NCBI GenBank assembly: GCA_903827265.1
Contig: CAIKHN010000019.1
Span: 11,814-75,813 of the forward strand
DNA length: 64,000 bases
Source of the DNA: Candidatus Uhrbacteria bacterium
GTDB taxonomy: Bacteria > Patescibacteriota > Patescibacteriia > UBA9934
Reading direction: 5' to 3'
In this document: positions 2,720 to 58,158 of the stretch, in pieces
Layout of the letters: each line of letters starts with the position of its first letter
Numbering within the stretch: position 1 is the stretch's first letter
Made by a program: the position numbers and the translations under genes
The notes under the pieces: model-generated
Databases searched by the model: none
What the model saw: only the letters and a program-made list of their open reading frames with translations
Told to the model about the DNA's origin: nothing

Positions 2720-3823
2720 ATGATTATACTAGAGTTCATGACCTCTCCATACACCGTCGCTCTCGCAAATGTTCCAGGCTTCGGGCCAAAAACAAACGCC
2801 CTACTTTTTGAACATTTTTCCGACGCAAAGGATGCGTGGAACGCTACGCGCGATGAGCTTTTGTCCCTCGGCGCTCGCCAACACGACGTTCAAAAATTCA
2901 TCCTGCTCCGTCAAACATGCGATCCACTCGTATTTGCAGAAACGATGGAGCGTCATGGCATTCGCGCAATAACGATTCATGACGACGAATATCCGGAGAT
3001 GTTAAAAACCATCCACACACCGCCAGCACTCCTCTTTGTGAAAGGAGCATTGCCTCCGCAAACCAAAAAACATCTCGCAATTGTGGGATCGCGACACGCT
3101 ACCGCCTACGGACTTCGCACTGCGAAAAAAATTGCCAGCGATTGCGCAAATGCTGGAATCGTTATTGTCAGCGGTTTAGCGTATGGAATCGACCAAGCCG
3201 CACACCGCGGAACTCTTGAGGTGCACGGCATCACGATCGCCGTGCTCGGGTCAGGTTTTCTCGGAATTGATAACCCACGCCACCAGGAACTCGGTGATGC
3301 AATTCTTGCAGGAGGCGGAGCAATCATTTCCGAATTTGGATTCACGACTCCTCCATACAAATATAATTTTCCTATCCGGAATAGAATTGTTGCCGGGATG
3401 TGCCACGGTACACTTGCGGTTGAAGCAGGGATTCCCTCAGGCACGCTTATCACCACAACATCAGCAACCGAGGAAAACCGCGAAGTCTTTGCGGTTCCGG
3501 GCATGATTGATTCTGCAAAAAGCAAGGGAACAAATGATCTTCTGAAAAATGGAGCCCATTTCGTTACCGAGGCCAGAGACATTTTTGAAGTCTTCGGCAT
3601 GAATGTCGCCCCCCAAGCAAGCGCGACCGCCTTTTTGCCTATTGGTCGGCCACCAGACGAAATTGCTCTTTTCGCTCAACTTGGCGCCGAACCCGTTCAT
3701 ATCGACGTCGCCATCGAAAAGGCGGGGCTCGCGACAACTGCAGGCTCAATTGCACTAACAGGCCTAGAGTTATTGGGGGTTATTGAAGATATCGGCGGGA
3801 AGCAATTTGTACGGAAGAATTGA
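2720..3823 (+). CDS. dprA: DNA processing protein DprA (Smf family)
   Basis: 367-aa ORF. Contains LAIVGSRHATAYG...SGLAYGIDQAAHRG, the Rossmann-like core typical of DprA. It lies immediately upstream of topA, as in many bacteria. Confidence 0.85.
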   Translation: MIILEFMTSPYTVALANVPGFGPKTNALLFEHFSDAKDAWNATRDELLSLGARQHDVQKFILLRQTCDPLVFAETMERHGIRAITIHDDEYPEMLKTIHTPPALLFVKGALPPQTKKHLAIVGSRHATAYGLRTAKKIASDCANAGIVIVSGLAYGIDQAAHRGTLEVHGITIAVLGSGFLGIDNPRHQELGDAILAGGGAIISEFGFTTPPYKYNFPIRNRIVAGMCHGTLAVEAGIPSGTLITTTSATEENREVFAVPGMIDSAKSKGTNDLLKNGAHFVTEARDIFEVFGMNVAPQASATAFLPIGRPPDEIALFAQLGAEPVHIDVAIEKAGLATTAGSIALTGLELLGVIEDIGGKQFVRKN

Positions 3824-3860
3824 GGAAAAGCCCGTTATTGTGCTATCGTCCGCATCATCT

Positions 3861-6143
3861 ATGTCAAAGCTTCTCATTGTTGAGTCTCCAACCAAGGCCA
3901 AAACCATCACCAAATTCCTTGGTCGCGAGTACAAAGTCATCTCATCATTTGGCCATATTCGTGACCTGCCAAAAAAGAGCACTGCAGTCGACGTGAAGCA
4001 CGGCTTTGCCCCAACATACGAAATTCCAGTCGATAAAAAGGACAAAGTAAAGGCGCTAAAGGACGCAGCAAAAGGTGTTGACGACATTTACCTCGCAACC
4101 GACGAAGACCGCGAAGGAGAGGCGATCGCCTGGCATATTGCGGAAGTCTTAAAGCTCGATCCTACAACCGCAAAACGCATTACGTTCCACGAAATTACCA
4201 AATCCGCTATTGCCGAAGCGCTCGACCACACTCGACGTATCGACATGCGAATGGTGGATGCGCAGCAAACGCGCCGCATTCTCGATCGCTTGGTCGGTTA
4301 CGAACTCTCTCCTCTTTTGTGGAGCAAGGTGCAACGCGGACTTTCTGCCGGTCGCGTGCAGTCTGTCGCGGTCCGATTGGTTGTTGAGCGTGAACGCGAA
4401 CGCCAGGCATTCAAAACCGACGAATACTGGAGCGTCGAGGCGATCCTTTCGAAATCGAACAGCGAATTCCCAACAAAACTCGTTGCGATCGGCGATCGCA
4501 AGATTGATAAGCTCGATATTAAAACTCAAGCGGAATCCGACGCTGTTGTTTCTGCAGTGCGCGATGCAGACTTCGTTGTGAAGTCGATCGAGAAAAAAGC
4601 AGCGAGTCGCAAGGCTCCAACGCCGCTGACCACATCGACCATGCAACAAGAGGCGTACAACCGTCTTGGCATGAGCGCAAAGCAAACCATGACGCTTTCG
4701 CAAAAACTTTACGAGACCGGTCGCATCACGTACATGCGAACCGATTCGACGAATTTGAGTGAGCAATTTATCACCGCAACACAAGCATTCATTCAGGCGC
4801 AGTGGGGCAACGACCTCGTCACCGGCGGCGTCCGATATCAGACAAACAAAAAAGGTGCGCAAGAAGCGCATGAAGCGATTCGTCCAACCGACGTTAACGC
4901 AACACCAGAAAGCCTTCGCGCCGAGCTCGAGCCTGGCATGTGGAAGCTGTACGACCTTCTGTGGCGCCGAACCGTTGCATCGCAATTGCCAAGTGCAAAA
5001 CTTGAACGCACCGCGATCGACTTTACCGCGAATAATCACACCTTCCGCGGCAACGGCAGTATTGTTGTCTTTGAAGGCTTCATGAAGGTTTGGCAGGCAT
5101 CAGAAGATAAAATTCTGCCAACACTTTCTGAGGGAGAGAATATTGGCAAAGCAGCAAGCGTTACCCCAGAACAGCATTTCACCGAACCTCCAGCACGCTA
5201 TTCCGATGCGTCGCTCATTAAAGTCATGGAAGAGTACGGCATCGGTCGTCCTTCCACCTACGCACCAACATTAAACACTATCGAAACGCGAGGCTACGTG
5301 TTGCGTGACGATGGAAAGCGACTGTACCCATCCGATATCGCATTCGTCGTTACCGATCTTTTAAAGGAGCATTTCCCACAAATCGTCGATTACGACTTTA
5401 CGGCAACCATGGAACGGAAGCTCGACCAAATTGCAGAAGGCGAGGAAAAGTGGAAGGAGGTGTTGGGCGATTTCTACGGTCCGTTTCATGAAGCAATTAT
5501 TGGCAAAGGCGCAGAGCTCACTCGAGAAACCGTCATGAAAGTGACGGAAATCGGCATCGATCCTGAAAGCGGGAAAATGATCGTCGCGCGCACCGGACGA
5601 TTCGGTCCGTTCGTACAAGTTGGCGAACTTTCACCAGACAAAAACGCCGAAAAACCAAAGCGCGCGAGCCTGGAAAAAAACCAAACCATCGACACGCTTA
5701 CGCTCGATCAAGCACTCAAATTGCTTTCCCTCCCTCGAACGCTCGGCAAACACACCAATGGCGACGAAATTGTGGCGAACGTTGGACGTTTTGGCCCGTA
5801 CTTAAAGTGCGGCGCAATCAACATCACATTGCCACCGGAATTCCACCCTGCAACCGTAAGCATCGAACAAGCAATTATGCTCTGCACCGACGGCGTCGCA
5901 AAGAAAATTAAGGCCATGACTCCGCTTGCAGAGCTTGGCATTGAACCTGAAACGAAAGCGAATATCGTTATCAAAGATGGACGGTACGGCGCATACGTTA
6001 CCGACGGAAAAACAAACGCGACCATTCCGAAGGGCATTGATCCAAAAACGGTAACCCTCAATGATGCAATCGATCTTCTTGTGAAGAAGCGAAAAGCGCC
6101 AAAGAGCCGATGGAAGCGTAAATCATCAGGCGACGACGAATAA
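3861..6143 (+). CDS. topA: DNA topoisomerase I
   Basis: MSKLLIVESPTKAKTITKFLG...SFGHIRDLP Toprim N-terminus, with a long body and C-terminal repeats. The track's start at 3783 is an upstream in-frame extension; the conserved N-terminus begins at the ATG at 3861. Confidence 0.93.
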   Translation: MSKLLIVESPTKAKTITKFLGREYKVISSFGHIRDLPKKSTAVDVKHGFAPTYEIPVDKKDKVKALKDAAKGVDDIYLATDEDREGEAIAWHIAEVLKLDPTTAKRITFHEITKSAIAEALDHTRRIDMRMVDAQQTRRILDRLVGYELSPLLWSKVQRGLSAGRVQSVAVRLVVERERERQAFKTDEYWSVEAILSKSNSEFPTKLVAIGDRKIDKLDIKTQAESDAVVSAVRDADFVVKSIEKKAASRKAPTPLTTSTMQQEAYNRLGMSAKQTMTLSQKLYETGRITYMRTDSTNLSEQFITATQAFIQAQWGNDLVTGGVRYQTNKKGAQEAHEAIRPTDVNATPESLRAELEPGMWKLYDLLWRRTVASQLPSAKLERTAIDFTANNHTFRGNGSIVVFEGFMKVWQASEDKILPTLSEGENIGKAASVTPEQHFTEPPARYSDASLIKVMEEYGIGRPSTYAPTLNTIETRGYVLRDDGKRLYPSDIAFVVTDLLKEHFPQIVDYDFTATMERKLDQIAEGEEKWKEVLGDFYGPFHEAIIGKGAELTRETVMKVTEIGIDPESGKMIVARTGRFGPFVQVGELSPDKNAEKPKRASLEKNQTIDTLTLDQALKLLSLPRTLGKHTNGDEIVANVGRFGPYLKCGAINITLPPEFHPATVSIEQAIMLCTDGVAKKIKAMTPLAELGIEPETKANIVIKDGRYGAYVTDGKTNATIPKGIDPKTVTLNDAIDLLVKKRKAPKSRWKRKSSGDDE

Positions 6144-14961: not shown

Positions 14962-16188
14962 TTACTTTACCGTGAACGAACGCACCGTGCTGTAACTCCC
15001 CCAGCCGCCGTCATCCTGGTACGCGATTCCGCGAACCGCCCAATAGTACGTGCCCTTGGAAAGGCTCGCGCTGTAGGACGTCGCAAATGCCGTCGACGGC
15101 TCGGCGCCGGTCATGTCGCCATCGGGATTCATGCAACCGCTCGTGAGCGACGAATTCGTGCATGCCATGATGTGCACCCGATACGTCCCCGAACCGTTGG
15201 ACCAACCGAGGGTCACCGGCGAGGAGACGCTCGCGCCATTTCCGGGGCTCGAAAGCGACGGCGCAGAGGGAGGCTCCACCCATGATTTCGCACCGATGTA
15301 CGTGCCAGGCGCGGTCGATCCGTTGTTCGAACACGACGTCGGGAACGTCGCCGATGCGCTCTGGCTCGCGCCCTTGCACGTCAGTTTTCCCCAGCCGGCA
15401 ACGCTCGTCACCGACGGCGACGACGTCCCGGGGAACACCCCGAAGTGCAGATGTGCGCTCGACGTCTTTTTCCAGGAGCCATACGCCGTACTCCAGTCGT
15501 AGTCATTCGCGATGGTTCCGATGGTATCGCCGGAGACATACGAGTCCCCCACCGACACACTCGAGTCGTAGACCAGATGGCCGTACACCACCACAAACGA
15601 CGTCCCGTCTGCCGCGTAGTGCTGCATGGCAACCGCCATGTTGCACATCGAGCTCCCGCCGTAGTCGTACCCCCATCCCGACGAGCAGGTGGAGTTCTGC
15701 GTTCCGCTCACCTTCACGACCGTTCCGGCCGCGATGGCGTACACCGACGTCCCACGAGACGCACCAATGTCCGTACCGTTGTGACAGGTATTCGTGTAGT
15801 AGTAGCTGCTTCCGCACGTGCCGAATCCGGCGTAGTCGTACGTATCTTTCCACGACGTGATGGAATCCATGGGGTACACGAACCCATTCCCCGCCGTCGT
15901 TTTTTCCGCTTGCACCGATGGCGCAGATTTCCGCGTCGCACACTCGTTGTCGGTATTCACGATTTTCGCCGTGTCTGCACCGGTGTCGAATCCGGAATCC
16001 TCGCCATTGCTACACGACGGCTCGATGGCACCCGAATCCGCCTCATTCCGAGCGATCGCTGCCCATTTCGCCTTGTTTGCCGCGACTTCTTTGTCCATTT
16101 CGCACTGGAAATCGCAACAGCCTGACATTTCGAACATCACGATGATGATCAGCCCGATGCCGACCATCGACGCAATACGACGAACCAT
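14962..16188 (-). CDS. Secreted M23-family (LytM-like) metallopeptidase with a C-terminal Ig/FN3-like domain. GC-rich gene
   Basis: HNGTDIGASRGTSVYAIAAGTV and a HLHFGV (HxH) motif. N-terminal signal anchor MVRRIASMVGIGLIIIVMF. The track's start at 16338 is probably an extension. Alternative frames here are Arg-rich, consistent with about 60 percent GC against roughly 48-50 percent elsewhere. Confidence 0.75.
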   Translation of the reverse strand: MVRRIASMVGIGLIIIVMFEMSGCCDFQCEMDKEVAANKAKWAAIARNEADSGAIEPSCSNGEDSGFDTGADTAKIVNTDNECATRKSAPSVQAEKTTAGNGFVYPMDSITSWKDTYDYAGFGTCGSSYYYTNTCHNGTDIGASRGTSVYAIAAGTVVKVSGTQNSTCSSGWGYDYGGSSMCNMAVAMQHYAADGTSFVVVYGHLVYDSSVSVGDSYVSGDTIGTIANDYDWSTAYGSWKKTSSAHLHFGVFPGTSSPSVTSVAGWGKLTCKGASQSASATFPTSCSNNGSTAPGTYIGAKSWVEPPSAPSLSSPGNGASVSSPVTLGWSNGSGTYRVHIMACTNSSLTSGCMNPDGDMTGAEPSTAFATSYSASLSKGTYYWAVRGIAYQDDGGWGSYSTVRSFTVK

Positions 16189-16517
16189 AACGCACCTCAC
16201 ATGTGGAGTCGCATTGATCCTGATTGATCGCCACGCCCCTGACTGCTGGAGATCGCAATCAGGAACCGACGAGCGCTGTGACGACTCGGAGAAAAAGCTG
16301 TCCCCACGATGCTTTTCTCCGAGTCGCGGAAGACCCAACCATTTCGCCGGTGCGAAAGCCCACGTGAAGGCACATCGCAGATCGCACGAAATCGATACGT
16401 CGTTCCCTAGAAATTCTCTTGTGCCGACGGCCGTCGGCAGTCACAGAACCGTTCTGCATCTATCGTGCCAAGATTTTGCGTACACCTCAAACGATTTTTC
16501 GCACAAACATCACAAAA

Positions 16518-19332: not shown

Positions 19333-20088
19333 ATGATCCGTCCCCTTCCGTTCCTGTTCATCGCTACCCTCGTCGGCTGCGACAATGTCGGCACCACCGA
19401 CTGCACCACCGTCTGCGGCGGGATCAACCCCGCCACCGGGCAGTACGACCCGGAGTACGACTGCAAGGACTCCTGCGACACCAGCGGAGACACCGCGGAT
19501 TCGGCCATCGAGGAGCCTGACGGCTTCCTTCTGGTGAAGGCGACCGTTCTCGGCAACGAGATCGCGAGCAACGTCATCATCGACGGGAAGATCGTCGGCG
19601 CCACGGGCGAGTCCATCGCCCTGAAGCCCGGCGAGTACACCTTCACGGTCGGCGACGATCCGACGGTGACGTCGGTGAACGGCCTGCCCGTGTATGAGTC
19701 TGCCGGTCTCGATTCCCCGTGGGAAACCGCGGATTGGATCTCGCCGGCGACGACCGCCACGGTCACGTCGGACGAACTCGTCTCGATGCCCGCGGACGAC
19801 GCCGTGATCGTGGAGATGAACCTCCTGTTCGCGGAAGGTCGGTGGACGTGTGACTCCGGCCACTCGGTCAGTACGGCAGAAATGTCGTACGCCGCCGATG
19901 GAAAGACGGTGGACTTCACGCACATTGGAGACATGATCGTCAGCGGGATCACGATGGTGACCGCAGATGACCCCGAATTCGGTAGCGGCAGCTTCCAGGA
20001 CACCGAAGTGGCAACCGTCCTCGAAGACGGAACCCACTTCTACGCCTGGCGCGGCGAACCGGAGGAGGATCCCCGTGAAACGAAGTGA
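19333..20088 (+). CDS. Hypothetical lipoprotein. GC-rich gene
   Basis: GGAGG lies 6 nt upstream of the ATG. Signal peptide plus lipobox (FIATLVGC). Acidic T/D/G-rich body. The overlapping minus-strand ORFs are judged artefacts of the high GC. Confidence 0.6.
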   Translation: MIRPLPFLFIATLVGCDNVGTTDCTTVCGGINPATGQYDPEYDCKDSCDTSGDTADSAIEEPDGFLLVKATVLGNEIASNVIIDGKIVGATGESIALKPGEYTFTVGDDPTVTSVNGLPVYESAGLDSPWETADWISPATTATVTSDELVSMPADDAVIVEMNLLFAEGRWTCDSGHSVSTAEMSYAADGKTVDFTHIGDMIVSGITMVTADDPEFGSGSFQDTEVATVLEDGTHFYAWRGEPEEDPRETK

Positions 20089-47643: not shown

Positions 47644-49121
47644 TTATGGAAGAAGTTTCACAAAGAATCGCTTGCCTTTCTGAACAATCACCTCGTCCGT
47701 GCGAGGAGAAACGTTCAGCATCGGATCGTTAACGACTTCGGACCCGATCTTTACGCCGGCCTGTTCGATGAGACGCTTTGCCTCGCCTTTCGACGGTGCA
47801 AATTCAGCCTCGACGAGAATTTCAACAATCGTGAGTGTTCGACCGCCCAGTGAAAGTTCTGGAATAACATCCGGCATTTCTTTGTTGCTGAACACTTGTA
47901 AGAAATGCTTCTTCGCCGCTTTTGCTTTGCTCTTGTTGTGGTACATCTCAACAACGGTTTCGGCCAAATGCATCTTTGCATCACGTGGATTCATACCACC
48001 AGCAATTGCAGATTCAACGGCAGCGATTTCATCATCTTCAAGATCGGTCGCAAGTTTAAAGTATGGAGCGATCATGCTGTCGTCCATTGCCATAATTTTA
48101 CCGAACATGTCTTCTGGCGAATCTGTTAGCGCGATGACTCCCCCTTCGCTCTTACTCATCTTCTTTCCTTCACTGTTCGTAAGAAGTGAAATTGCGAGTA
48201 CAAACTTCTCTTTCTGTTTCATCTCTCGCATTAACGTTCGGCCCGCAAGCATGTTGAACGTTTGATCATTCCCACCAACCTCCAAGTCCACATCCATCGC
48301 AACGGAATCGTAGCCCTGCATGAGTGGGTACATGAATTCGTGGAGGTAAATTGGCTTCGAAGGTCTCATGTAGCGCCCGTACTTTGTGAACAAGAAACTA
48401 GGCGCCTCTTTCGGATCTTCTTCTCTCAACTTTTTAAGCGCCTCCTGGTCTTCCTTAGAGAGGAATGCTTTGCCACATTTTGGATCCCACATTTCAGTAA
48501 TACCCGTACTAACCTCCGGCACCGAAACTCCCAAGTCTGCGAGCTTCGGATTGGAGCGAATTGTCTTGTTCATTATCTTTGCGTTGGATGCGAAAACGTT
48601 TCCACAATGTGGACATTCAATCTCTCCCATAAATCTGCGATCAAACATATCCCGCTCTAACATTTGTTGAACGGTGAAATGACTCGCTAACTGCATGACA
48701 TCTCCAAAGTTCATTTTTCCAAGCCACTTGTCGTTGAACATCACCTTTGCGGCGTTGTCGCCAGAAAACTTCAGAATCTTCGACGCTTGTTTTTTGTACG
48801 TCGCTGCATTCGCGAGTACCTCTTGCTTTGTGAGCTGCTTTCGCGTCGCAAGTTTGTCCGTCGGGTCACCGATCATTGCGGTGAACGATCCGATCAACAT
48901 GATCACCTCGTGACCAAGATCTTGGAATTCACGAAGCTTTCTCAGCTGCATTGCGTGACCAATATGCAAGAACGGTGCTGTTGGATCGATACCGTTGTAC
49001 AGCCGCAATCGCTTGCCGCTCATCAAAAGTTCGCGCAACTTTTCCGTGGTTGGATACACGGTGGCGACACCACGGGTGAGCAATCGATTAATTTTGTGTT
49101 CATCGGTAATGACGTTCATAG
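47644..49121 (-). CDS. tyrS: Tyrosyl-tRNA synthetase with C-terminal S4 domain. Has an extra segment of about 90 aa between HIGH and KMSKS
   Basis: HIGHAMQ and KKMSKS motifs. S4-like C-terminus. I placed the start at the internal ATG (MNVITDEHK) just after the stop of the upstream VOC gene; the track's start at 49182 overlaps that gene. Confidence 0.8.
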
Positions 49122-49123
49122 AA

Positions 49124-49495
49124 TTACGCGTGATCTTCATCGAGAATAAGTTGGTTGCCATCTGCATCAGCAATAATGGCATTCCATCCGCCCCATATTT
49201 GTTGGATAGGTTCTACAAGAATTGTTACGCCAGCGCGACGCAACTCGTTGACTGCGGCGCGAATATCGTCAACCGCGAGCACGATTCCTGTTGGACCGCC
49301 GATGTGAACGTTCTCAAAACCTTTTGCCCGGCTAGGATTCTTTTCCTCAACGTACAGTCGCCCGCCGGGCAACGTATATTCAGTGAAGTGTGGGTTCTCT
49401 TCAACGAGCTCAAGCTTAAGAATGTCTCGATAAAAAGCTTTCGACGCTTCTACGTCTGAGACAAAGATGAGATGAGCACCGAGGGAAAACTTCAT
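49124..49495 (-). CDS. Glyoxalase/bleomycin-resistance (VOC) family protein
   Basis: 123 aa, with a beta-alpha-beta-beta-beta pattern (AHLIFVSDVEASKAFY...VHIGGPTGIVLAVDDI). Confidence 0.6.
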   Translation of the reverse strand: MKFSLGAHLIFVSDVEASKAFYRDILKLELVEENPHFTEYTLPGGRLYVEEKNPSRAKGFENVHIGGPTGIVLAVDDIRAAVNELRRAGVTILVEPIQQIWGGWNAIIADADGNQLILDEDHA

Positions 49496-49504
49496 ATATC
49501 GGCA

Positions 49505-52201
49505 TTATGACACAAGTGCTGCGTGCTCTTTTTGGAGCGCAGCAAGTTTTTCTTGAAGATCGGCGAGCTTCTGACGTTCCCCGGCAATGACCTTCTCCGG
49601 CGCACGAGCTACAAAATCCGTATTCGCAAGTTTTGATTCTTGGGCTGCGATGAATTTTGTCGCTTCGGCGATCTCGGATTCGATTCGGATCTTTTCCGAA
49701 GCAGCGTCGACGGCTGGCAATTGTACGAAGATCTGCGCTGCGCCAACCACAATCGGCGTAATCGACTCCGGTCGCTCCATGCTTGATCGGACAATCTTCA
49801 CTTTCGTGAGGCCGCCGATAACCGACTCCATTTCCGCCAAAGCACCAGCATTGACGATCGTAATCGACTCAACATCCTTCGGTAACGTCTTATGTTCCGA
49901 GAGATAATTACGAATCGCAATTACCGCCGAGCACACCTGATCGAATGCCGCTCGATCCTCCGACGACAATTCGTGCTCAACCGTTGGCCACTTTGCAACA
50001 ATAATCATTCCGGAGTCGAAGTTCTTATAGATTTCCTCGGTAACGAATGGTGCAAATGGGTGCCAAAGGATAAGCAAACGTTCGAGAATGTAGAGAAGAA
50101 TATCGCTCTTCTCGCCTTCGATTTTGGCGATTTCGAGGTACCAGTCCGCGAAGTCGTTCCACGTAAAGTCACGCAACACTTCGATGGCGAGCGAGAAGTC
50201 GTAACGATCGATGAGTAAACTAACCTTCTTTGCTGTCTCACTAAACCGCGCAAGGATCCATTTGTCGGCAAGCGTCTTCGGCTCCACCTCCCCCCGACCC
50301 CCTCCTTCGTAAGGAGGGGGAGTCTTCGCGGAAAGAATAAATCGCGAGATATTCCACAGCTTGTTCACAAGGTTACGCGATGCTTCAACTTTCTCAATGT
50401 AATATCGCGAATCGTTTCCTGGAGTGTTTCCGGAAAGCAACGAAACGCGCAATGCATCGCAACCGTATTCTTCGATAACTTCAATAGGATCAATTCCATT
50501 ACCAGAAGACTTTGAGAACTTCTTTCCGTCCTTATCACGAAGAATACCGTGAATGTATGCGTCCTTAAATGGAATCTGGTTCAGCGCATACGTGCTCATG
50601 AGAATCATGCGCATCAACCACAAATACAAAATTTCATATCCCATCTGAATCCAGTTCGTTGGATGAAACTGTTCAAGATCGGAAGGCTTGCCGTCCGTAG
50701 CCTTGGCGAAGGACGGCCAACCGAGCGTCGAGAATGTCCACGATCCGCTCGAGAACCACGTATCGAGCGTGTCTTCATCTTGAACCCAGCCTTCGCCTTC
50801 TGGTTTTGCGCCGACAAAGATCTCCACCCCCTCCAACTCCCCCTCGGAAAGGGGGAGAGATTTAGTCTTCCGATACCACGCAGGAATACGATGACCCCAC
50901 CAGAGCTGGCGCGAAAGGCACCAGTCGCGGAGATTTTCGATGCGATCGAGATAGAGTTTCGTGAATCGATCTGGCGTAATCGAAACTTTTTGTTCGGATT
51001 TCCCATCGAGTCCAGTGGTAACCGCCTCACGCATCAAATCACGCAGCGTTTTGCCGCGACCAGGAATTTCTTTGTTCACGTTCAACCACCACTGCGTCAT
51101 CGGAATTGCCTCAATAACGTCGCCATACCGATCAGATGTACCAACGTTCTGAATAACCTTTTCTTCTTTTTCGAGAAGTCCTTGTTCCTTCAGCCACGAA
51201 ACAACTCTTTCGCGCGCAGCCTCAATGGTCATGCCGGCGACAGATCCTGCGTCGGCGGTCATCTTCCCGTCTGCGCCGATCACTTGCTTGATTTCGATAG
51301 GATCATTTTTCGCCTTCTGCACTTCGTACATTCCGAAATCGATCGCACTGTGTGCCGGAGTAACGCCGAGCGCGCCGGTTCCAAATGACGGATCAACTGC
51401 ATCGCTCGCGATCACTTTGATTGAAAGCTTTGCGCTGGCGAATTCAACATCGTATGTTTTTCCAACGAATGTTTTGTATCGATCATCAGTTGGATGCACT
51501 GCAACAGCCGTATCGCCAACCTTTGTTTCTGGACGTGTCGTGGAAATCGTGATCGGAAAATCTTTGCTGTATTTAAACGTGTACAGCATCGACTCGCGTT
51601 CGATAGTTTCGATCTCGTCATCAGAACACGTGGACTGGCCTTTCACCGACCAATTCACCACGCGGAAACCACGATAGATGAGTCCATCGTTGTACATGCG
51701 TGTGAAAAGTTCGTTCACCGCAGCGCTCCGTTTGTCGTCGAACGTGTATGCCAAACGGCTCCAGTCTGCACTGGTTCCTAATTTCTTTACCTGTGTAAGA
51801 ATCGTCGATTTTGAGCTTTCAGCAAACTCGCGAATTTTCTCAAGCAACCCTTCGCGGCCAAGCTCTTGCCGGGGATTCTTCATTCCACCAGCCATGAGAT
51901 TTTTCTCAACACGAGCCTGTGTGGCGATTGCGGCGTGGTCGGTTCCCGGCACAAGAAGCACCTTCTTTCCCAATAAACGCTGATAGCGAACCATCGCGTC
52001 CATGAGGGAGTTTTCAAGCGCATGGCCAAGGTGAAGCACGCCCGTCACGTTTGGCGGAGGCATCACCACAGTGAACGCTTCGGTGGAATCAGTAATGTTT
52101 GGCAAACCCTCTGGCGCAAAATAGCCTGAGCTTAGCCAAGATTCATAAATTCCATCCTCCACGAGCTTCGCCTCGTACGCCTTTGCCATTTCGTTTGCCA
52201 T
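49505..52201 (-). CDS. valS: Valyl-tRNA synthetase
   Basis: MANEMAKAYEAKLVEDGIYESW...PPPNVTGVLHLGHA class I motif. The anticodon-binding region (FTWNDFADWYLE) and the coiled-coil C-terminus are present. ATG verified at 52201. The first 374 aa of the track's ORF (to 53323) are antisense read-through of the GC-rich cassette. Confidence 0.9.
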   Translation of the reverse strand: MANEMAKAYEAKLVEDGIYESWLSSGYFAPEGLPNITDSTEAFTVVMPPPNVTGVLHLGHALENSLMDAMVRYQRLLGKKVLLVPGTDHAAIATQARVEKNLMAGGMKNPRQELGREGLLEKIREFAESSKSTILTQVKKLGTSADWSRLAYTFDDKRSAAVNELFTRMYNDGLIYRGFRVVNWSVKGQSTCSDDEIETIERESMLYTFKYSKDFPITISTTRPETKVGDTAVAVHPTDDRYKTFVGKTYDVEFASAKLSIKVIASDAVDPSFGTGALGVTPAHSAIDFGMYEVQKAKNDPIEIKQVIGADGKMTADAGSVAGMTIEAARERVVSWLKEQGLLEKEEKVIQNVGTSDRYGDVIEAIPMTQWWLNVNKEIPGRGKTLRDLMREAVTTGLDGKSEQKVSITPDRFTKLYLDRIENLRDWCLSRQLWWGHRIPAWYRKTKSLPLSEGELEGVEIFVGAKPEGEGWVQDEDTLDTWFSSGSWTFSTLGWPSFAKATDGKPSDLEQFHPTNWIQMGYEILYLWLMRMILMSTYALNQIPFKDAYIHGILRDKDGKKFSKSSGNGIDPIEVIEEYGCDALRVSLLSGNTPGNDSRYYIEKVEASRNLVNKLWNISRFILSAKTPPPYEGGGRGEVEPKTLADKWILARFSETAKKVSLLIDRYDFSLAIEVLRDFTWNDFADWYLEIAKIEGEKSDILLYILERLLILWHPFAPFVTEEIYKNFDSGMIIVAKWPTVEHELSSEDRAAFDQVCSAVIAIRNYLSEHKTLPKDVESITIVNAGALAEMESVIGGLTKVKIVRSSMERPESITPIVVGAAQIFVQLPAVDAASEKIRIESEIAEATKFIAAQESKLANTDFVARAPEKVIAGERQKLADLQEKLAALQKEHAALVS
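50279..50330. repeat. GC-rich palindromic repeat element, copy 3 (inside valS, in frame; encodes ...KTPPPYEGGGRGEVEP...)
   Basis: GGCTCCACCTCCCCCCGACCCCCTCCTT-CGTA-AGGAGGGGGAGTCTTC. Shares the GGCTCCA start and the CCCCCT...GGGGGAG hairpin with copies 1 and 2. Confidence 0.65.
50811..50870. repeat. GC-rich palindromic repeat element, copy 2 (inside valS, in frame; encodes ...KSLPLSEGELEGVEI...)
   Basis: TCTCCACCCCCTCCAACTCCCCCTCGGAAAGGGGGAGAG. About 88 percent identical over about 42 bp to the reverse complement of copy 1. Confidence 0.7.
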
Positions 52202-52267
52202 AGATAGGACAGAGTGTAGACGAAAGACGGATTTTATGGTAGGTTTTTCTCCGTTCTCGGAGCTTCT

Positions 52268-52606
52268 GTGCCTTCCAACAATCGTCCTGCCCAGCCTATC
52301 GTGAGCGCCGCCGAAGGCGCGCACAGCCGTCTGTCCGCGATCCTCAAAACCCAAAAAGGAGAAGACGCAAGACGACTGCGTCGCGCGATCAATAGCATTC
52401 TCAACATGATCGACCGGTTCGCCGCCGGCGACATTACCAAGCGTCAGGAGATACCTCCCAGTGTCCAACGCAACCCCACGACGGATATCGAACGGAAAGT
52501 GATGGCGTTCTGGAGGGCAACGGACCTTCTGCAGGACCGAATGTTCGATGGGCGTTCCCCGGTCTCCGAGGAAACCATCATCGCTACCTTCCATGCGATC
52601 TCCTGA
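52268..52606 (+). CDS. Small hypothetical protein, paralog A (short form) of a 3-member tandem family. GC-rich
   Basis: GTG-start ORF. Its C-terminal half aligns to paralog C (EIP..R..T....RKV......LL..R.....S..T...I.AF). Confidence 0.5.
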   Translation: MPSNNRPAQPIVSAAEGAHSRLSAILKTQKGEDARRLRRAINSILNMIDRFAAGDITKRQEIPPSVQRNPTTDIERKVMAFWRATDLLQDRMFDGRSPVSEETIIATFHAIS

Positions 52607-52620
52607 TCGCACCACATCAC

Positions 52621-52669
52621 CAACGCACGCCACGGCCCGCTCTTCGAGAGTCGGGCCGTGGATTGTTTT
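52621..52669 (+). terminator. 49-bp repeat unit containing a 13-bp-stem hairpin plus T-tract (intrinsic terminator), copy 1
   Basis: CAACGCACGCCACGGCCCGCTCTTCGAGAGTCGGGCCGTGGATTGTTTT. Identical copy at 53311..53359. Confidence 0.7.
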
Positions 52670-52738
52670 CTGAAAATATTGAAAAAAATGACGTTCTCGG
52701 CTAATCTTTGGCGGGACAACTTTCCCCCGAGGTTCATC

Positions 52739-53287
52739 GTGAAACTGCCTACTACCGCAATCCTCAGCAAATACATGGATGCCGTCCGCCGCATCCAGAA
52801 GATGATCGACGCCTGCAAGGGCGCGCACGCCGACGCATGGCTCAAAGCGATGATCGCCATCAACGAGACGTATGGCAGCATGACGGGAATTCCGTACCGC
52901 GTGATCGACTCCAAAATGCTTTGCTTGGGCGTCGGCAGGCAGGTCTGGCGTCTCTACCACGCCGTGCAACTCCTCGCGGAGTATCGGTTCACGCCAGACA
53001 CTGACGTGACGGAAGAGGACGTGATAAAGGCGTTCGACAAGGTTGCCAGCAACGCGCGTGGCAACGACACCATCTTCACGTGCGACAACGTGTCCCCGGC
53101 AGCACAGCGCGCAATGCTCAACACGCCCTTCTTCAACGACGGGCTGCCCGGATGGATCGTCGAAGGAGTCGGGACCGAATCGCCTACCATGTTCGTAATC
53201 ACCGGAAGCTTCGGCGTGACCGCGGAGCATCTCCCGGAGAACGTCCAGTTCAATCCGGAGCTGAAGATCTGGGACGTCGTTCGCTGA
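52739..53287 (+). CDS. Small hypothetical protein, paralog B. GC-rich
   Basis: About 35 percent identical to paralog C over the shared core (IPY...G.GR.V..L..A.QLLAE.R.....T.E.DVI.AFD). I placed the start at the GTG at 52739, which has GAGG 7 nt upstream. The track's start at 52658 lies inside the terminator repeat. Confidence 0.5.
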   Translation: MKLPTTAILSKYMDAVRRIQKMIDACKGAHADAWLKAMIAINETYGSMTGIPYRVIDSKMLCLGVGRQVWRLYHAVQLLAEYRFTPDTDVTEEDVIKAFDKVASNARGNDTIFTCDNVSPAAQRAMLNTPFFNDGLPGWIVEGVGTESPTMFVITGSFGVTAEHLPENVQFNPELKIWDVVR

Positions 53288-53310
53288 CAAGGCGTCGGCA
53301 CACAGCAACA

Positions 53311-53359
53311 CAACGCACGCCACGGCCCGCTCTTCGAGAGTCGGGCCGTGGATTGTTTT
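53311..53359 (+). terminator. 49-bp terminator-containing repeat, copy 2
   Basis: Identical to 52621..52669. Confidence 0.7.
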
Positions 53360-53362
53360 TAT

Positions 53363-53391
53363 TGACTTTTTGGCATTTTTCGGCTTACTAT
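53363..53391 (+). promoter_or_regulatory. Sigma70-like promoter for paralog C (TTGACT-N17-TACTAT)
   Basis: Read directly from the sequence. GGAG lies 8 nt upstream of the ATG at 53420. Confidence 0.45.
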
Positions 53392-53419
53392 AGCGACGGC
53401 ATCAACGCCCGGAGACACC

Positions 53420-54007
53420 ATGTCCCTGCAGCTCATTCCCAAGACTCAAGCCCCGACCGACAACCTTCTTCACGCCCAGGAACGTGCGTTCGAAAGCCTC
53501 ATCGTCACCATGAATACCCCCGGAGGCGGGAGGGCGCCGAGGCACCGCATGATTCAAAACATGCTCACCGAACTCGGGGTGCTCTCCAGGAATCTGAGGG
53601 AAATTCCGTACTTCCATTCCATTCGACAGGTCGAAACTGACGGAATCGGACGGAAGGTTCATCACCTCTTCGCTGCGATGCAGCTCCTCGCGGAGTGGCG
53701 CGACGAACCGACATCGGGAACGACCGAAGCGGACGTCATCGCCGCGTTCGATCTCGCGATGGCGTCGAGCACCAACGACGCCGCGATCTTCCCCGGCGGC
53801 AACGTCCATCCGGCCGTGAAGCGCCTCATCGTCGAGGGACAGAGGCATCGGCCAGAAGGAACGAGCAAAATGTCGATCCGACTCATGCACCCGAATCCGA
53901 AGATCGAGATCGATCTCCCAGGGAACGCATCGCCAATCACCGACACCGTCCCGCCGATCGTTCGGCTCAATCCTCAGACGTTCGTATGGGAGATCTTCCC
54001 GCACTGA
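53420..54007 (+). CDS. Small hypothetical protein, paralog C. GC-rich
   Basis: ORF with its own promoter and RBS. Paralogous to A and B. Confidence 0.55.
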   Translation: MSLQLIPKTQAPTDNLLHAQERAFESLIVTMNTPGGGRAPRHRMIQNMLTELGVLSRNLREIPYFHSIRQVETDGIGRKVHHLFAAMQLLAEWRDEPTSGTTEADVIAAFDLAMASSTNDAAIFPGGNVHPAVKRLIVEGQRHRPEGTSKMSIRLMHPNPKIEIDLPGNASPITDTVPPIVRLNPQTFVWEIFPH

Positions 54008-54343
54008 AGCTCACGGCTCGGCCTCCCAGGAGGTCGAGCCGTTCGTCGTTTCATAACAGAAACGAGCGGCCCGTAGGCCGCCCGTCGTTGTTCCTGCGTG
54101 TCGCTGCGTCTGGTCAATCGCCGGTCGTCGACGGAGCGTAGACGAACAGCTCCTCAAACGGAACCGGGGATGGGATCGGGAGAGTGAGGTTGGTCAAAAG
54201 ACCTCCTTGCCTCGCACGAGAGTGTGCAGAGGACAACGAACCTTAGCGAATATTTGTAAAAATGTCCACATTCGTCGGAAGCAAGATCTTGACCAGAGCA
54301 ACCCTGACCGATAGGCTTACCCCTTACCCCTCGTTTACCCCGC

Positions 54344-55483
54344 ATGTCCTTGGCGCTCTTCCAGCAATTCCACGAAACACTCAAGCGGGCGAAGCGTCCG
54401 GTTGTTGTGCTTCGATCTGAACCATCGGTCGACGATTTCACTGCTGCATTTAGCATTGCCGCACTGTGCAAAACACTTGGCGTTCCTTGCGCAATTGTCA
54501 CCAGCGGCGGACGAGCTCCTGATGCGTTGAAGTTTCTTTCTGTTTTTCAAGATGTCGTCGGCGATCTTGGAAACATCAACGCGCTTACCCTTCGCGTAAA
54601 ACTCGATCACGCAAAAGTGGACGGACTCACGTACGCCGTCAACGGCAACGATCTCGTTGTCACTATCACACCAAAAACCGGCTCATGGCAGCCAAGCGAT
54701 GTTCACATCGAGAGCAATGATTATCGTTTCGATCTCATTATCGCAATTGGGACGCCAGATCGATCGAGCCTTGGCGCACTTTTTTCAACCTACGCGGATT
54801 TCTTTGTAAAAACTCCAACCGTCGTTATCGACCACGGCCCAGAAAACGAACACTTTGGCACCATCAACATCATCGATTTAACCGCAACGAGCGTTTCAGA
54901 AGTTTGCTTTAACCTCTTCACACACATCGACGCAACGATCGTCACCTCTGACATTGCGACCACTCTCCTCACCGGCATGATGAGTAAAACAAAGAGCTTC
55001 CGCGCGCCGAACGTTTCGCCAAAGACGCTCGAAATCGCACAAAAGCTCATGGAGAAGAAGGCGGACCGCGAGGCGATCGTGGAACATCTCTATCGAACAC
55101 GATCGGTGGAAACACTTCGCCTTTGGGGCCGCGCGCTTGCTCGACTGAAGGCTGATGAATCGATCGGCTTCGTCTGGACGCTCATCACTAAACAGGATTT
55201 TGTCACCGCTGGCGCAGGCGACGATGCGTTGCGCGACATTGCCGACGAGCTTCTTCTTACTTCCCCTTCCGCGAAAGTCGCCCTCATCCTTTTTGAAACC
55301 CAAACCGGAACCATCGCCGGACAACTCTTCGCACAACGACCGTTCGATGCCCTCGTTCTCGGCGCCCCGTTCCGCGCCACCGGCACCCGCGAGTTTGCCC
55401 ATCTTTCTCTTACCCAAACCGACATCGTCTCCGCAGAACGCGGCGTCATTTCGCATCTCAAAACGAGTTTGCGCCAGAAATAG
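54344..55483 (+). CDS. DHH/DHHA1-family phosphoesterase (NrnA-like)
   Basis: Two-domain pattern (VVLRSEPSVDDFTAAFSIA...VIDHGPENEHFG...; C-terminal GGGH-like region is degenerate). Family assignment moderate. Confidence 0.55.
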   Translation: MSLALFQQFHETLKRAKRPVVVLRSEPSVDDFTAAFSIAALCKTLGVPCAIVTSGGRAPDALKFLSVFQDVVGDLGNINALTLRVKLDHAKVDGLTYAVNGNDLVVTITPKTGSWQPSDVHIESNDYRFDLIIAIGTPDRSSLGALFSTYADFFVKTPTVVIDHGPENEHFGTINIIDLTATSVSEVCFNLFTHIDATIVTSDIATTLLTGMMSKTKSFRAPNVSPKTLEIAQKLMEKKADREAIVEHLYRTRSVETLRLWGRALARLKADESIGFVWTLITKQDFVTAGAGDDALRDIADELLLTSPSAKVALILFETQTGTIAGQLFAQRPFDALVLGAPFRATGTREFAHLSLTQTDIVSAERGVISHLKTSLRQK

Positions 55484-55539
55484 TCTTTTGCTAAACGCGT
55501 CGAGCTTGAGCCCAAGAAGGGATCGCTCGCGTGGTCTCT

Positions 55540-55697
55540 TCAGTTTCCCTCCCACTCTTTCTTCCACTCAAATCCCACCGATCCACACTCCGCACATTTC
55601 ATTTCAAAATACGGTTGATCACCTCGTTGTTCCGTTAGGCCAGTCCAGGTTTCCTTACCACCACACAGCGGGCACTCGGATTCAATAGGTTGCATAT
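55540..55697 (-). CDS. Small zinc-ribbon protein (about 52 aa, CPLCGG...CAECG)
   Basis: MQPIESECPLCGGKETWTGLTEQRGDQPYFEMKCAECGSVGFEWKKEWEGN. The upstream part of the track's ORF is judged an extension. Confidence 0.45.
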
Positions 55698-55748
55698 ACG
55701 GAAATCGTATCATGCGACATCGATGTTCCAAATGGCACATGTTACAAT

Positions 55749-57182
55749 ATGCGCATGGACTCGCTTTGGTATTCAACTCGTGCAATGCCGGCGCACCGCA
55801 GAGTCGGCGCATACGTCGCAGACACCGCTCCACTCGGGCTGTTGTTTAAGCTTGTTCGCGACATTCCCGCTGCGGATCCATATCTTGTTGGCGGAACCGT
55901 TCGCGACGCGGTTCTTGGCGTCGTTCCACATCGAGCTCATGTTCTTGTTCGCGATGTCGCGCCACCACTCTTAAACAAATTCCTCAACGCCAATGGCACG
56001 GTTACGCAACACTCCAACGGCCATTGGCACGTCACACCTCGCGGTACACACGAAACGATTTCCGTTTCCGTCCCCCACGTTCGGACCCTCGATCATTCCG
56101 GAACTACAACGCGAATTCCTGCGCACGAACGATCGCTGCACGACGACCTTGCCGCTCGCGATTTTTCGATAAATTCCATGGCGTATTCGCTGAAAGACGG
56201 AATTCTTCACGATCCTCACGGCGGACTCCACGACCTCATCAACCGAAAAACAATCCGCACACTTCATCATCCAGAACTCCACCTTTCCCAAGAACCAGCA
56301 CTCGTTTCTCGTGCCATTCGCTTAGCAAGCCAATACGGACTCACGTTCGACGAAGCGCTCTGGAGTGCAATTCCGCGTCATCACGCATCGGTTCATCGCA
56401 CGGATCACGACGAAGACGGCAACAATCGATACGTTATTCCTCGTGTTCGCCTTGGCCACGATGTATTAATGGCGCTTGCGCATAATCCGAAATACGCACT
56501 TACACTCTTAAAAGACAGCGGCGCGCTTGAATCCCTCGCTCCAGAATTACTTCAACACGGGGCTACCGTGCACGACGACGGCGAAACCGGCTGGCAAAAG
56601 ACACATCGCCTCTTCGATATTCTTGAGCATCACGACATTGCTCGCGCATACGGCGCCGCAAAAAAGAGTGCAACGCTCTACCTCGCAGGCCTTCTCACGC
56701 TTCTCGACGACCGCGCGATGGGCACCCTCCGCGATATCGTCACTCGTCTCCATTTGCACGCCGTCGACGATCATCGCCTGCACTTCGATCACACAGACGC
56801 GGGCTGGATGTTGAACAAAACTGTCACACTTACTCAAGGCCACGCGAAAGAACTCTCCCCCGCCGAACGCGAACGGCTCGTCCGCGGAGCGCGCGGCGCA
56901 GAGCTTCTTGCGCTCCTCGACGCAACGGCAAGCGCAAAACACGAACATGGTATTGCTCGCGAAAATCTTATTCACTTACGCAACGAACGCGAACGCTGGC
57001 TGAACAATCCCGCTCCAGACGAACTCGTCCGCGGCCGCGATCTGCTTGCCCTCAACTTCTCCCCAGGCGCTCACCTCCGAGGAATCCTCGACAAAATCCG
57101 CAGCGCCCAACTCGACGGCCATCTCTCCTCCCGCGCCGCCGCCCTGGACTTCGCTCGATACCTCGCTGCGCAGAATGGATAA
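55749..57182 (+). CDS. tRNA nucleotidyltransferase / poly(A) polymerase-family protein (CCA-adding-enzyme-like) with a non-canonical catalytic motif
   Basis: YLVGGTVRDAVLG head motif and RDFSINSMAY motif. The DxD position reads PHRAH. Confidence 0.6.
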   Translation: MRMDSLWYSTRAMPAHRRVGAYVADTAPLGLLFKLVRDIPAADPYLVGGTVRDAVLGVVPHRAHVLVRDVAPPLLNKFLNANGTVTQHSNGHWHVTPRGTHETISVSVPHVRTLDHSGTTTRIPAHERSLHDDLAARDFSINSMAYSLKDGILHDPHGGLHDLINRKTIRTLHHPELHLSQEPALVSRAIRLASQYGLTFDEALWSAIPRHHASVHRTDHDEDGNNRYVIPRVRLGHDVLMALAHNPKYALTLLKDSGALESLAPELLQHGATVHDDGETGWQKTHRLFDILEHHDIARAYGAAKKSATLYLAGLLTLLDDRAMGTLRDIVTRLHLHAVDDHRLHFDHTDAGWMLNKTVTLTQGHAKELSPAERERLVRGARGAELLALLDATASAKHEHGIARENLIHLRNERERWLNNPAPDELVRGRDLLALNFSPGAHLRGILDKIRSAQLDGHLSSRAAALDFARYLAAQNG

Positions 57183-57224: not shown

Positions 57225-57301
57225 TGGTGCGCGCACGTGGACTCGAACCACGGACCTTCACAATGTCAATGTGACGCTCTAACCAACTGAGCTATGCGCG
57301 C
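57225..57301 (-). tRNA. tRNA-Val (anticodon GAC)
   Basis: GCGCGCATAGCTCAGTTGGTTAGAGCGTCACATTGACATTGTGAAGGTCCGTGGTTCGAGTCCACGTGCGCGCACCA. Confidence 0.85.
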
Positions 57302-58081: not shown

Positions 58082-58158
58082 TGGTAGGCTCACCTGGACT
58101 CGAACCAGGGACCACCGAGGTATAAGCTCGGCGCTCTAACCAACTGAGCTATGAGCCC
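58082..58158 (-). tRNA. tRNA-Ile with anticodon TAT (UAU), which would decode AUA
   Basis: GGGCTCATAGCTCAGTTGGTTAGAGCGCCGAGCTTATACCTCGGTGGTCCCTGGTTCGAGTCCAGGTGAGCCTACCA. The body resembles bacterial tRNA-Ile. Anticodon loop CTTATAC. Confidence 0.75.

Follow-up and report, generated by a model that had tools for sequence, protein, structure and literature searches.

Flexible islets at fixed positions among core genes are represented by the hypervariable regions of streamlined marine bacteria and by hotspot loci in the pangenomes of E. coli and P. aeruginosa. Here we describe a locus in a 64,000-nucleotide stretch of DNA from the uncultured, ultra-small Candidatus Uhrbacteria bacterium (contig CAIKHN010000019.1, hereafter the window), in which three small genes on the + strand, named A, B and C, lie between valS, encoding the valine-tRNA ligase (ValRS), and a gene encoding a DHH/NrnA-like phosphoesterase (nrnA-like gene). 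This gap, hereafter the slot, resembles the flexible islets in its fixed place between housekeeping genes, its variable content, its open reading frames (ORFs) without known relatives (ORFans), its deviant base composition and the break in recombination history associated with it. However, the slot is very small (0.7–4.7 kb) and contains no integrase, tRNA or mobile-element genes. In addition, its recurrent occupant is a single endemic family and not an open cargo, and its high GC content persists over deep divergence. The protein family of A, B and C is new, while its setting, a small flexible slot between core genes, is of a known kind.

Other described systems share some features with this locus. 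Orphan immunity arrays of polymorphic-toxin systems, such as contact-dependent inhibition (CDI), Rhs and type VI secretion (T6SS), and acquired islands of interbacterial defence also consist of tandem, divergent, small cytoplasmic paralogues with their own signals, varying copy number and an elevated ratio of nonsynonymous to synonymous divergence (dN/dS), but no toxin or toxin remnant, known immunity family, recombinase or sign of mobility is present here. Integron arrays, and clusters of attC sites lacking an integrase (CALINs), likewise contain small same-strand ORFans, each with a palindrome that is better conserved than the gene. In the present locus, however, the palindrome is a hairpin with a T-tract and without attC cores, the genes have their own promoter-like sites and belong to one family, and an integrase is absent. 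The variable surface-protein families of Mycoplasma and Borrelia are comparable in their tandem paralogues, in the recombination of copies and flanking modules and in gene gain and loss, but differ from A/B/C, where signal peptide or lipobox, phase-variation tract and a layout of silent cassettes and expression site are all lacking.

Analysis of the window and its relatives suggests that the segment is probably an endemic birth-and-death gene family residing in a recombination-prone chromosomal slot and not a recently imported island. The family itself is real, rare, previously undescribed and present in two architectures; a literature search for a described equivalent returned nothing relevant. 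Genomes of Patescibacteria are small and consist mostly of core genes plus many unknown genes, and sites of fast gain and loss in them are candidates for functions by which these bacteria depend on other cells or are in conflict with them and with viruses. The locus offers a compact and well-delimited example, combining a confident predicted structure unmatched in PDB and BFVD, a fixed address at valS, 0–4 gene copies, terminators evolving in concert and a stable excess of GC at third codon positions (GC3) for which recent transfer cannot account. Gene birth and death in reduced genomes, and composition bias driven by recombination, could be studied in it as a test case, although at present it is one more lineage-restricted family and not a demonstrated system.

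The slot in relatives and its protein family

Loci of relatives were gathered using the conserved nrnA-like neighbour as an anchor. Their source environments include the samples of Logan runs ERR4194438 and ERR4195057 and groundwater, from which L013, L018, L026 and L027 were obtained. They belong to one lineage of Patescibacteria (candidate phyla radiation, CPR), whose metagenome-assembled genomes (MAGs) are labelled either 'Candidatus Uhrbacteria' or 'Patescibacteria group'. In every neighbourhood recovered with the family, its members are located just past the start of valS, from which they differ in strand, and precede the nrnA-like gene and cca. Of the two conserved borders of the slot, the left is formed by valS, which is transcribed divergently from gene A, and the right by the nrnA-like gene, orthologues of which (61–91% identical) flank the slot in all relatives. 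The wider gene order is argS-tyrS-valS, slot, nrnA-like-cca.

Copy number of the family varies from 0 to 4 across the relatives. In addition to A, B and C, the window slot contains a 27-codon stub of a second family, R, which is described below. A single member of the long type (the two types are defined below) is present in L004-7 and L024, and also in L022, where a 68-aa ORF accompanies it. Two long members are found in L008 and L028, three in L015, and one short followed by two long members in L003. The slot of L009 holds an R gene and two long members, while that of L014 holds four long members and two R genes. No member is present in L012, L013, L017, L018 or L026. Of these, L012 has a gap of 675 bp with an unrelated 160-aa ORF even though its nrnA-like protein is 91% identical to that of the window, L013 has an unrelated 168-aa ORF and an R gene, and L018 and L026 have R only. 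Different ORFs occupy the slot of the more distant relative L019 (ValRS 55% identical to the window). Two of them (3577–4065 and 4223–4696, both + strand) are small, stand in tandem and match each other weakly (E 7e-5 over 44 aa), and are unrelated to A/B/C.

Judged from these sequence comparisons, the slot is fixed in position and variable in content, and the A/B/C family is its main, endemic occupant. ValRS of the relatives is 71–86% identical to that of the window and the same slot is occupied, which indicates that the association between family and slot is old and predates their divergence. An earlier note on this DNA, made from the sequence alone, had likened the segment to accessory islands. 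A fresh acquisition of such an island does not agree with the same gap being found in all recovered relatives, with ValRS identity down to ~71% and high GC3 in all of them. The earlier note correctly placed three same-strand ORFs between valS and the DHH gene, whereas valS starts at 52201 and not at 52202. The gap is kept in the relatives, but its content differs among them.

A profile of A, B and C was searched with HMMER against 1.84 billion cluster representatives and retrieved 26 proteins at E ≤ 1e-3. Two of the 26 are repeat-driven eukaryotic proteins and were judged spurious, leaving 24 genuine clusters. A word-indexed search with C alone returned C itself only, so the full HMMER profile search was needed. 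The genuine clusters split into a long type of ~180–200 aa, which includes B- and C-like proteins, and a short, A-like type of ~83–112 aa (P0004, P0006, P0011, P0014, P0020 and L003 9496–9825). Homologues are 20–75% identical at the protein level in the + frames and share the conserved motifs IPY, GRxVxxLxxAxQLLAEW, IFPxGNVSPAAxR and IWDV.

Mutual homology of the three proteins, as claimed previously, is evident by BLASTP between B and C (E 1e-16, 29% identity over 131 aa) and between A and C (E 2e-5), but A and B do not match each other in a pairwise BLASTP comparison. At the profile level, the A-type aligns with the first 110 positions of the long type (hhalign probability 97.3%, E 2e-11). 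By these alignments B and C are clear paralogues, and A belongs to a separate short subfamily equal to the N-terminal four-helix domain of B/C. The AlphaFold2 (AF2) model of B (predicted local distance difference test score, pLDDT, 93.3; predicted template modelling score, pTM, 0.90) consists of four long helices (residues 6–101), two short helices and a five-stranded C-terminal domain (residues 140–180). The model of A (pLDDT 90.4) shows four helices in the same order as in the N-domain of B. Since the A-type is conserved as a subfamily consisting of the N-domain only, A is not a truncated pseudogene. The short type is consistently basic, with an isoelectric point (pI) of 9.2–10.3, while the pI of long members ranges from 4.8 to 10.0.

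Selection on the family was compared with that on its neighbours using the Nei-Gojobori method. The dN/dS values of B and C against their L014 orthologues are 0.43 and 0.33, and that of A against L003 is 0.28. Across the family dN/dS is 0.28–0.46, whereas the same genome pairs give 0.02–0.09 for the neighbours valS, nrnA-like and cca. The N-domain (0.45–0.47) evolves about twice as fast as the C-domain (0.22–0.25). These substitution patterns show that the family genes are, as read from sequence, coding and under purifying but relaxed selection, which is most relaxed in the N-domain. The C orthologue in L014 is 83% identical, and the gene C protein is also present in Logan assemblies of two separate sequencing runs. 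Exact-sequence look-ups found neither A nor B on record, so independent assembly support for the A-B-C order comes down to the B-terminator-C arrangement of L014.

No known relative of the family was found in the libraries searched. Scans of A, B and C against Pfam, NCBIfam, PHROG and PADLOC gave nothing above noise, which confirms the previous statement that no family is recognisable, and among 25 family members no Pfam or NCBIfam family was matched by more than one member. A profile search of PDB sequences returned a single marginal match to a methyltransferase (E 0.0025), which was judged implausible. The structure search proposed in the earlier note was done with Foldseek on the AF2 model, and neither PDB nor BFVD yielded a match at E ≤ 1e-3. 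Relatives of the family were also not found by tblastn in 50,697 phage and 72,556 plasmid records or in pattern scans of IMG/VR.

Inspection of the family N-termini for a signal peptide or lipobox revealed no hydrophobic N-terminal signal, and soluble, cytoplasmic products are predicted. A conserved catalytic constellation is not apparent in the family. It is conceivable that the A/B/C proteins are non-enzymatic binding or adaptor proteins, in which the variable N-domain sets partner specificity.

Terminator modules, recombination and base composition

Genes A and B are each followed by an identical 49-bp segment (CAACGCACGCCACGGCCCGCTCTTCGAGAGTCGGGCCGTGGATTGTTTT), starting 14 and 23 nt past their respective stops. 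As described previously, the repeat is exact and carries a hairpin with a T-tract; it occurs exactly twice in the window and gave zero matches in 100 window shuffles. The predicted fold is a G+C-rich hairpin with a stem of 14 bp (dG −29.9 kcal/mol, z −4.1), after which comes ATTGTTTT(T). The repeat is not listed in the terminator scan because it does not reach the rule of at least 5 T in 8. The orthologous copy 2 in L014 (1133–1181) has 48 of 49 bases the same. In all genomes, the same elements stand in the same order past each family gene. A stretch rich in CA leads into a homologous G+C hairpin and a T-tract, after which the −35 element of the next gene, of TTGAC type, usually comes. Inspection covered 21 downstream regions, and 13 homologous sites from seven genomes were aligned. 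The alignment yields a 13-pair consensus stem with compensatory double changes in 5 of the 13 pairs, and its columns over the T-tract show little or no variation. A T-tract directly after a hairpin is the hallmark of an intrinsic terminator. Structure and covariation show the modules after the family genes to have the form of intrinsic terminators; an Rfam search of the hairpins returned no match.

Upstream signals are also present at each gene. Shine-Dalgarno-like GGAG or GAGG is read in the sequence 5–6 nt ahead of the starts of A, B and C, and the start of B is backed by its ribosome-binding site (RBS) and by N-termini of homologues (for example, P0002 MKLPSHT). The GGAG RBS previously assigned to C is present, as are the TTGACT and TACTAT elements of its promoter-like site, which is conserved in L014, but their spacer is of 18 nt and not 17 nt. 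The −10 element of B is weak and below the scan threshold, and its promoter is inferred only. The earlier claim of individual promoters and terminators is thus supported by structure and covariation for the terminators, while the promoters are consensus matches. Each gene probably represents a separate transcription unit composed of promoter, Shine-Dalgarno sequence, ORF, CA-rich spacer, G+C hairpin and T-tract, and the promoter-gene-terminator unit appears to be ancestral to the family, with the promoters taken as consensus matches.

Terminators are more alike within arrays than between genomes. Their identity is 1.00 in the window and 0.87–0.96 in L015, as against 0.63–0.83 between genomes, although the proteins attached to the homogenised terminators share only ~25–45% identity. 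Between the window and L014, its closest relative, the B-C intergenic region is 92% identical and the coding sequences of B and C are 79% and 89% identical, respectively. These identities show concerted evolution, with terminators homogenised within arrays. The earlier note had taken the identical terminators of A and B as the mark of a duplication of a gene-plus-terminator unit. However, a recent duplication is not supported, as A and B diverged anciently and belong to separate subfamilies conserved in distant relatives, which indicates that the identity of their terminators is due to later homogenisation. L015 parallels the window, its terminators being 87–96% identical while its proteins are far less alike. 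The state of L014 also fits homogenisation. This genome has no A, but it keeps the GGAG-N5-start of A and a degenerate hairpin ahead of the conserved B promoter, and in L003 an A-type gene comes first after valS. The remnant in L014 indicates that A is ancestral and was deleted there.

Further traces of gain, loss and recombination are found at the right side of the array. The window sequence 54009–54088 is 98.75% identical to L014 3086–3165, which lies 3' of the fourth family gene of L014. Between C and this shared 80-bp convergent-terminator block L014 carries two further members, both of which are absent from the window. Synonymous divergence (dS) between the window and L014, calculated over 51896–57179, is 0.23–0.42 for the N-terminus of valS, B and C and 0.84–0.86 for the nrnA-like gene and cca; within B, the N-domain has a dS of 0.65 and the C-domain one of 0.21. 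These jumps in dS point to recombination breakpoints in and beside the array, and indicate that window and L014 are mosaic with a junction at the slot. In L012, which has no family member, a family-type terminator hairpin (ACGCACGCCACGGCC...GGGCCGTGGATTGTTTT, 4849–4899) is nevertheless present. It is located 3' of the unrelated 160-aa ORF and directly upstream of the conserved promoter region of the nrnA-like gene, and suggests that slot genes may be replaced between fixed regulatory modules.

A diversity-generating retroelement (DGR) or a tandem-repeat mechanism was also considered and rejected, as neither a template/variable repeat pair nor a simple-sequence repeat was found; the only tandem repeat is a trivial 7-mer (2.3 copies), and it does not lie within a gene.

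The segment was described as clearly richer in GC than its flanks, and this is correct. The gap has a GC content of 0.580, compared to 0.503 in the remainder of the window. GC3 is 0.68 in A, 0.80 in B and 0.75 in C, well above the GC content at second positions (GC2) in the + frames of all three. Most other genes of the window have a GC3 of 0.40–0.58, with rplS at 0.66. The high value is not confined to the window. GC3 of the family is 0.67–0.87 across all relatives (0.75–0.87 in L003, L004 and L009), R genes reach 0.64–0.81, and the slot is 5–10 GC points above its flanks whatever it contains. As dS between these genomes is at least 1 and GC3 shows no amelioration, a signal of recent import would have decayed, and the excess must have been maintained. 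Expression-linked codon bias was rejected as its cause because rplS reaches only 0.57–0.66 in the same genomes. GC-biased conversion with frequent recombination, or a family-specific codon preference, is more likely than a recent foreign origin. Taken with the alignments above, neither a full lack of homology among the three proteins nor a typical composition with conservation as core genes was found.

Two other GC-rich islets (GC 0.58–0.62 per kb) are present in the window. The first (14962–16338, − strand) encodes a protein of 458 aa in which a Peptidase_M23 domain scores above cutoff (38 bits) and the N-terminus apparently contains a hydrophobic segment, and the second (19333–20088, + strand) a 251-aa ORF product with a lipoprotein-like N-terminus and no Pfam match. 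The composition check thus finds the cassette near valS distinct, but these islets show that it is not the sole compositionally deviant segment of accessory genes in the window.

Probable history of the array and alternative explanations

The array probably evolves by birth and death in a recombination-prone slot. Homologous recombination and gene conversion between near-identical promoter/terminator modules and between paralogues would add, delete and reshuffle units. The same recombination would homogenise the terminators within a genome and so yield the exact 49-bp repeat. The lineage of the window would have kept A, B and C, lost two members that are present in L014 and shrunk an R gene on the − strand to a stub of 27 codons.

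Several points weigh against this reading or parts of it. Only ~15 distinct loci were compared. The promoters of the family are matches at consensus level only, and the −10 element of B is weak. GC-biased conversion as the source of the GC3 excess is a conjecture, and the only grounds for binding proteins are the evolutionary pattern and the fact that a catalytic motif is not obvious. In the libraries searched, neither fold nor sequence led to a relative with a known function. The family might adjoin valS so strictly because of a functional link and not through inherited synteny. Finally, the Logan contigs L001 and L002, which carry gene C, begin within the 49-bp repeat (positions 1–30). Independent short-read assemblies starting inside the repeat indicate that it fragments de Bruijn assemblies, and MAG or short-read assemblies may therefore break or collapse at these repeats, in which case some copy numbers would be too low.

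The earlier note had likened the segment to islands of immunity proteins or defence genes. The genes might be orphan immunity proteins against polymorphic toxins, or parts of anti-phage systems, diversified by an arms race. Several features agree with this: the genes are tandem, divergent, small and cytoplasmic in product, and promoter and terminator signals accompany each of them; close relatives carry between 0 and 4 copies, in a slot flanked by core genes; dN/dS is 5–10 times that of the neighbours and highest in the N-domain; and the fold is unmatched in the libraries searched, as is common for immunity proteins. However, no toxin domain, toxin C-terminal fragment, secretion-system gene or recombinase is present among the slot ORFs of any locus or among window genes within ~8 kb on either side of the cassette, and an integrase is likewise absent from the latter. 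The PADLOC, Pfam and NCBIfam scans, which include immunity families, and the phage, plasmid and viral collections lend no support either. The other occupants of the gap are without PADLOC or PHROG matches (PADLOC covered eight other slot proteins). Overall dN/dS stays below 1, and the family was never found away from this one locus, whereas known immunity and defence genes travel with mobile elements. We therefore regard a role in immunity or defence as unlikely.

A more specific proposal is that the locus is a self-homogenising diversification array fixed in place, whose N-domain variants bind or neutralise changing proteins of host cells, competitors or phages. In it, A, B and C would form a two-domain family of novel structure, and recombination between the conserved promoter and terminator modules would keep producing new sets of specificity variants. 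This is a speculative and distinctly unlikely reading. If true, episymbiotic ultra-small bacteria would possess a repertoire for immunity or host interaction of a new kind, and GC-biased conversion would be the footprint that it leaves in the genome.

It is also possible to see the proteins as accessory factors of tRNA or RNA metabolism, acting as regulators or adaptors with ValRS, the NrnA-like phosphoesterase and the CCA-adding enzyme, which would account for their restriction to this place. In all recovered loci the family adjoins valS divergently and is co-directional with the nrnA-like gene and cca, and the neighbourhood extends from argS and tyrS to cca, while the basic pI of the short type is compatible with nucleic-acid binding. 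However, a factor of this kind is hard to reconcile with a copy number of 0–4, with absence from the close relatives L012, L013, L017, L018 and L026 and with a slot that also accepts unrelated genes. A terminator after each gene argues against co-transcription with the neighbours, relaxed selection speaks against a core role, and synteny in one lineage is explained by descent alone. Such a function appears quite improbable.

Recent horizontal import of the segment from a donor of higher GC into the gap between valS and the DHH gene is very improbable and is largely refuted by synteny. The GC of 0.58 against 0.50, the GC3 of 0.68–0.80, the ORFan nature of the proteins and the absence of the family from the close relative L012 would fit an import. 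But the same family occupies the same slot in relatives with ValRS ~71–76% identical, so it is older than their divergence; GC3 is 0.67–0.87 everywhere at dS of at least 1, without amelioration; and homologues are not found outside the lineage or in the phage, plasmid and viral collections. Neither an integrase nor a tRNA is present at the slot borders. A 17-nt imperfect direct repeat (15/17; 52208–52224 and 54130–54146) brackets the cassette almost exactly, but by our own estimate it is within chance expectation for a 2.4-kb region, and L014 does not conserve its left copy, so the repeat probably does not represent att sites.

An integron-like cassette array (CALIN), in which the palindromes would be attC-type sites and the genes mobile cassettes, is disfavoured and hardly credible. 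Small same-orientation ORFans, a conserved imperfect palindrome past each of them that has diverged less than the gene itself, and a varying gene number recall such arrays. On the other hand, a T-tract comes directly after every palindrome, no RYYYAAC/GTTRRRY core pair was seen on inspection of the 21 downstream regions (a dedicated attC model was not applied), each gene has a promoter-like site and Shine-Dalgarno sequence, no integrase is nearby, and all cassettes belong to one family rather than to mixed functions, with nothing found by Rfam.

That the ORFs are chance open frames in a GC-rich spacer whose real features are non-coding, as the stop-free frames on both strands and several antisense ORFs of 100–200 aa might suggest, is refuted by the protein-level homologues in the + frames, by dN/dS well below 1, by GC3 much above GC2, by the Shine-Dalgarno sites and by AF2 pLDDT of 90–93. 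Stop-free antisense frames in GC-rich DNA do account for the false extension of valS that the earlier note had recognised: the antisense ORF 49505–53323 (− strand) is 1272 aa long, of which 373 aa extend beyond the true ValRS of 898 aa across the GC-rich cassette.

Features of the locus and the R family

Coordinates of the features of the slot, its borders and the intact R genes are listed below.

Table 1. Features of the slot between valS and the nrnA-like gene in the window, and R genes in relatives (positions on the respective loci).
Feature	Position	Strand	Basis
valS, valine-tRNA ligase, 898 aa	49505..52201	-	NCBIfam valS equivalogs above cutoff, E 1e-262
GGAG RBS of gene A, 5 nt ahead of GTG start	52259..52262	+	sequence
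Gene A, 112 aa, GTG start, short type, basic (pI 10.3)	52268..52606	+	ORF
Terminator module copy 1; hairpin 52630-52661 then ATTGTTTT	52621..52669	+	exact 49-bp repeat, fold
Putative promoter of B: TTGAAA, 17 nt, TAATCT	52679..52707	+	sequence; same region identical in L014
Gene B, 182 aa, GTG start, long type; GAGG RBS 52729-52732	52739..53287	+	ORF
Terminator module copy 2, 100% identical to copy 1	53311..53359	+	exact repeat
Promoter-like site of C: TTGACT, 18 nt, TACTAT	53362..53391	+	consensus scan, 9/12 matches
Gene C, 195 aa, ATG start, long type; GGAG RBS 53411-53414	53420..54007	+	ORF
Family-type terminator hairpin of C, then TCGTCGTTTC	54013..54042	+	fold of 54005-54110: dG -52, z -4.6
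Terminator-like hairpin convergent with C terminator, serving R remnant	54061..54086	-	scan: 11 pairs, then TTTCTGTT; fold
R remnant, 27 codons, TTG start, strong AAGGAGG Shine-Dalgarno 54202-54208	54114..54197	-	sequence
DHH/NrnA-like phosphoesterase gene, 379 aa	54344..55483	+	Pfam DHH E 3e-4, NCBIfam NrnA E 3e-7, both below cutoff
R gene, L014	3174..3959	-	
R gene, L014	4110..4874	-	
R gene, L013	4095..4856	-	
R gene, L018	1503..2303	-	
R gene, L009	130..897	-	
R gene, L026	6140..6940	-	

The R family is a second family of ORFans, of ~255 aa and on the − strand, with intact genes in the slots of L009, L013, L014 (two), L018 and L026. No match to Pfam, PADLOC or PHROG was found for it. The stub in the window (MTNLTLPIPSPVPFEELFVYAPSTTGD) has its N-terminus LTLPIPSPVP joined to the ELFVY motif from the middle of the R proteins, and these two segments match separate parts of the R genes in L014, L013, L018 and L009. 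By blastn against L014 3174–3959, the stub carries an internal deletion and a 3' deletion, and it is a doubly deleted remnant of an R gene. A search of PDB sequences with the R profile gave several weak matches to the RNA-polymerase alpha C-terminal domain (E 0.24–0.55, R residues ~33–85), a resemblance in sequence which is a lead only.

Two minor observations concern genes near the slot. The tyrosine-tRNA ligase (TyrRS, 47644–49182, − strand) is 512 aa long in the window, while in L003, L004 and L024 it is 408–412 aa long and aligns only from residue 268. Residues ~190–240 of the long form contain CPHCG...CGK motifs with the look of a zinc-ribbon insertion, and this form is shared by L012 and L013 over its first 183 residues at least. 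On the other side of the slot, a tRNA-Ile with the anticodon TAT, which is uncommon in bacteria, is present at 58082–58158 (− strand), with a tRNA-Val (GAC) as its neighbour at 57225–57301.

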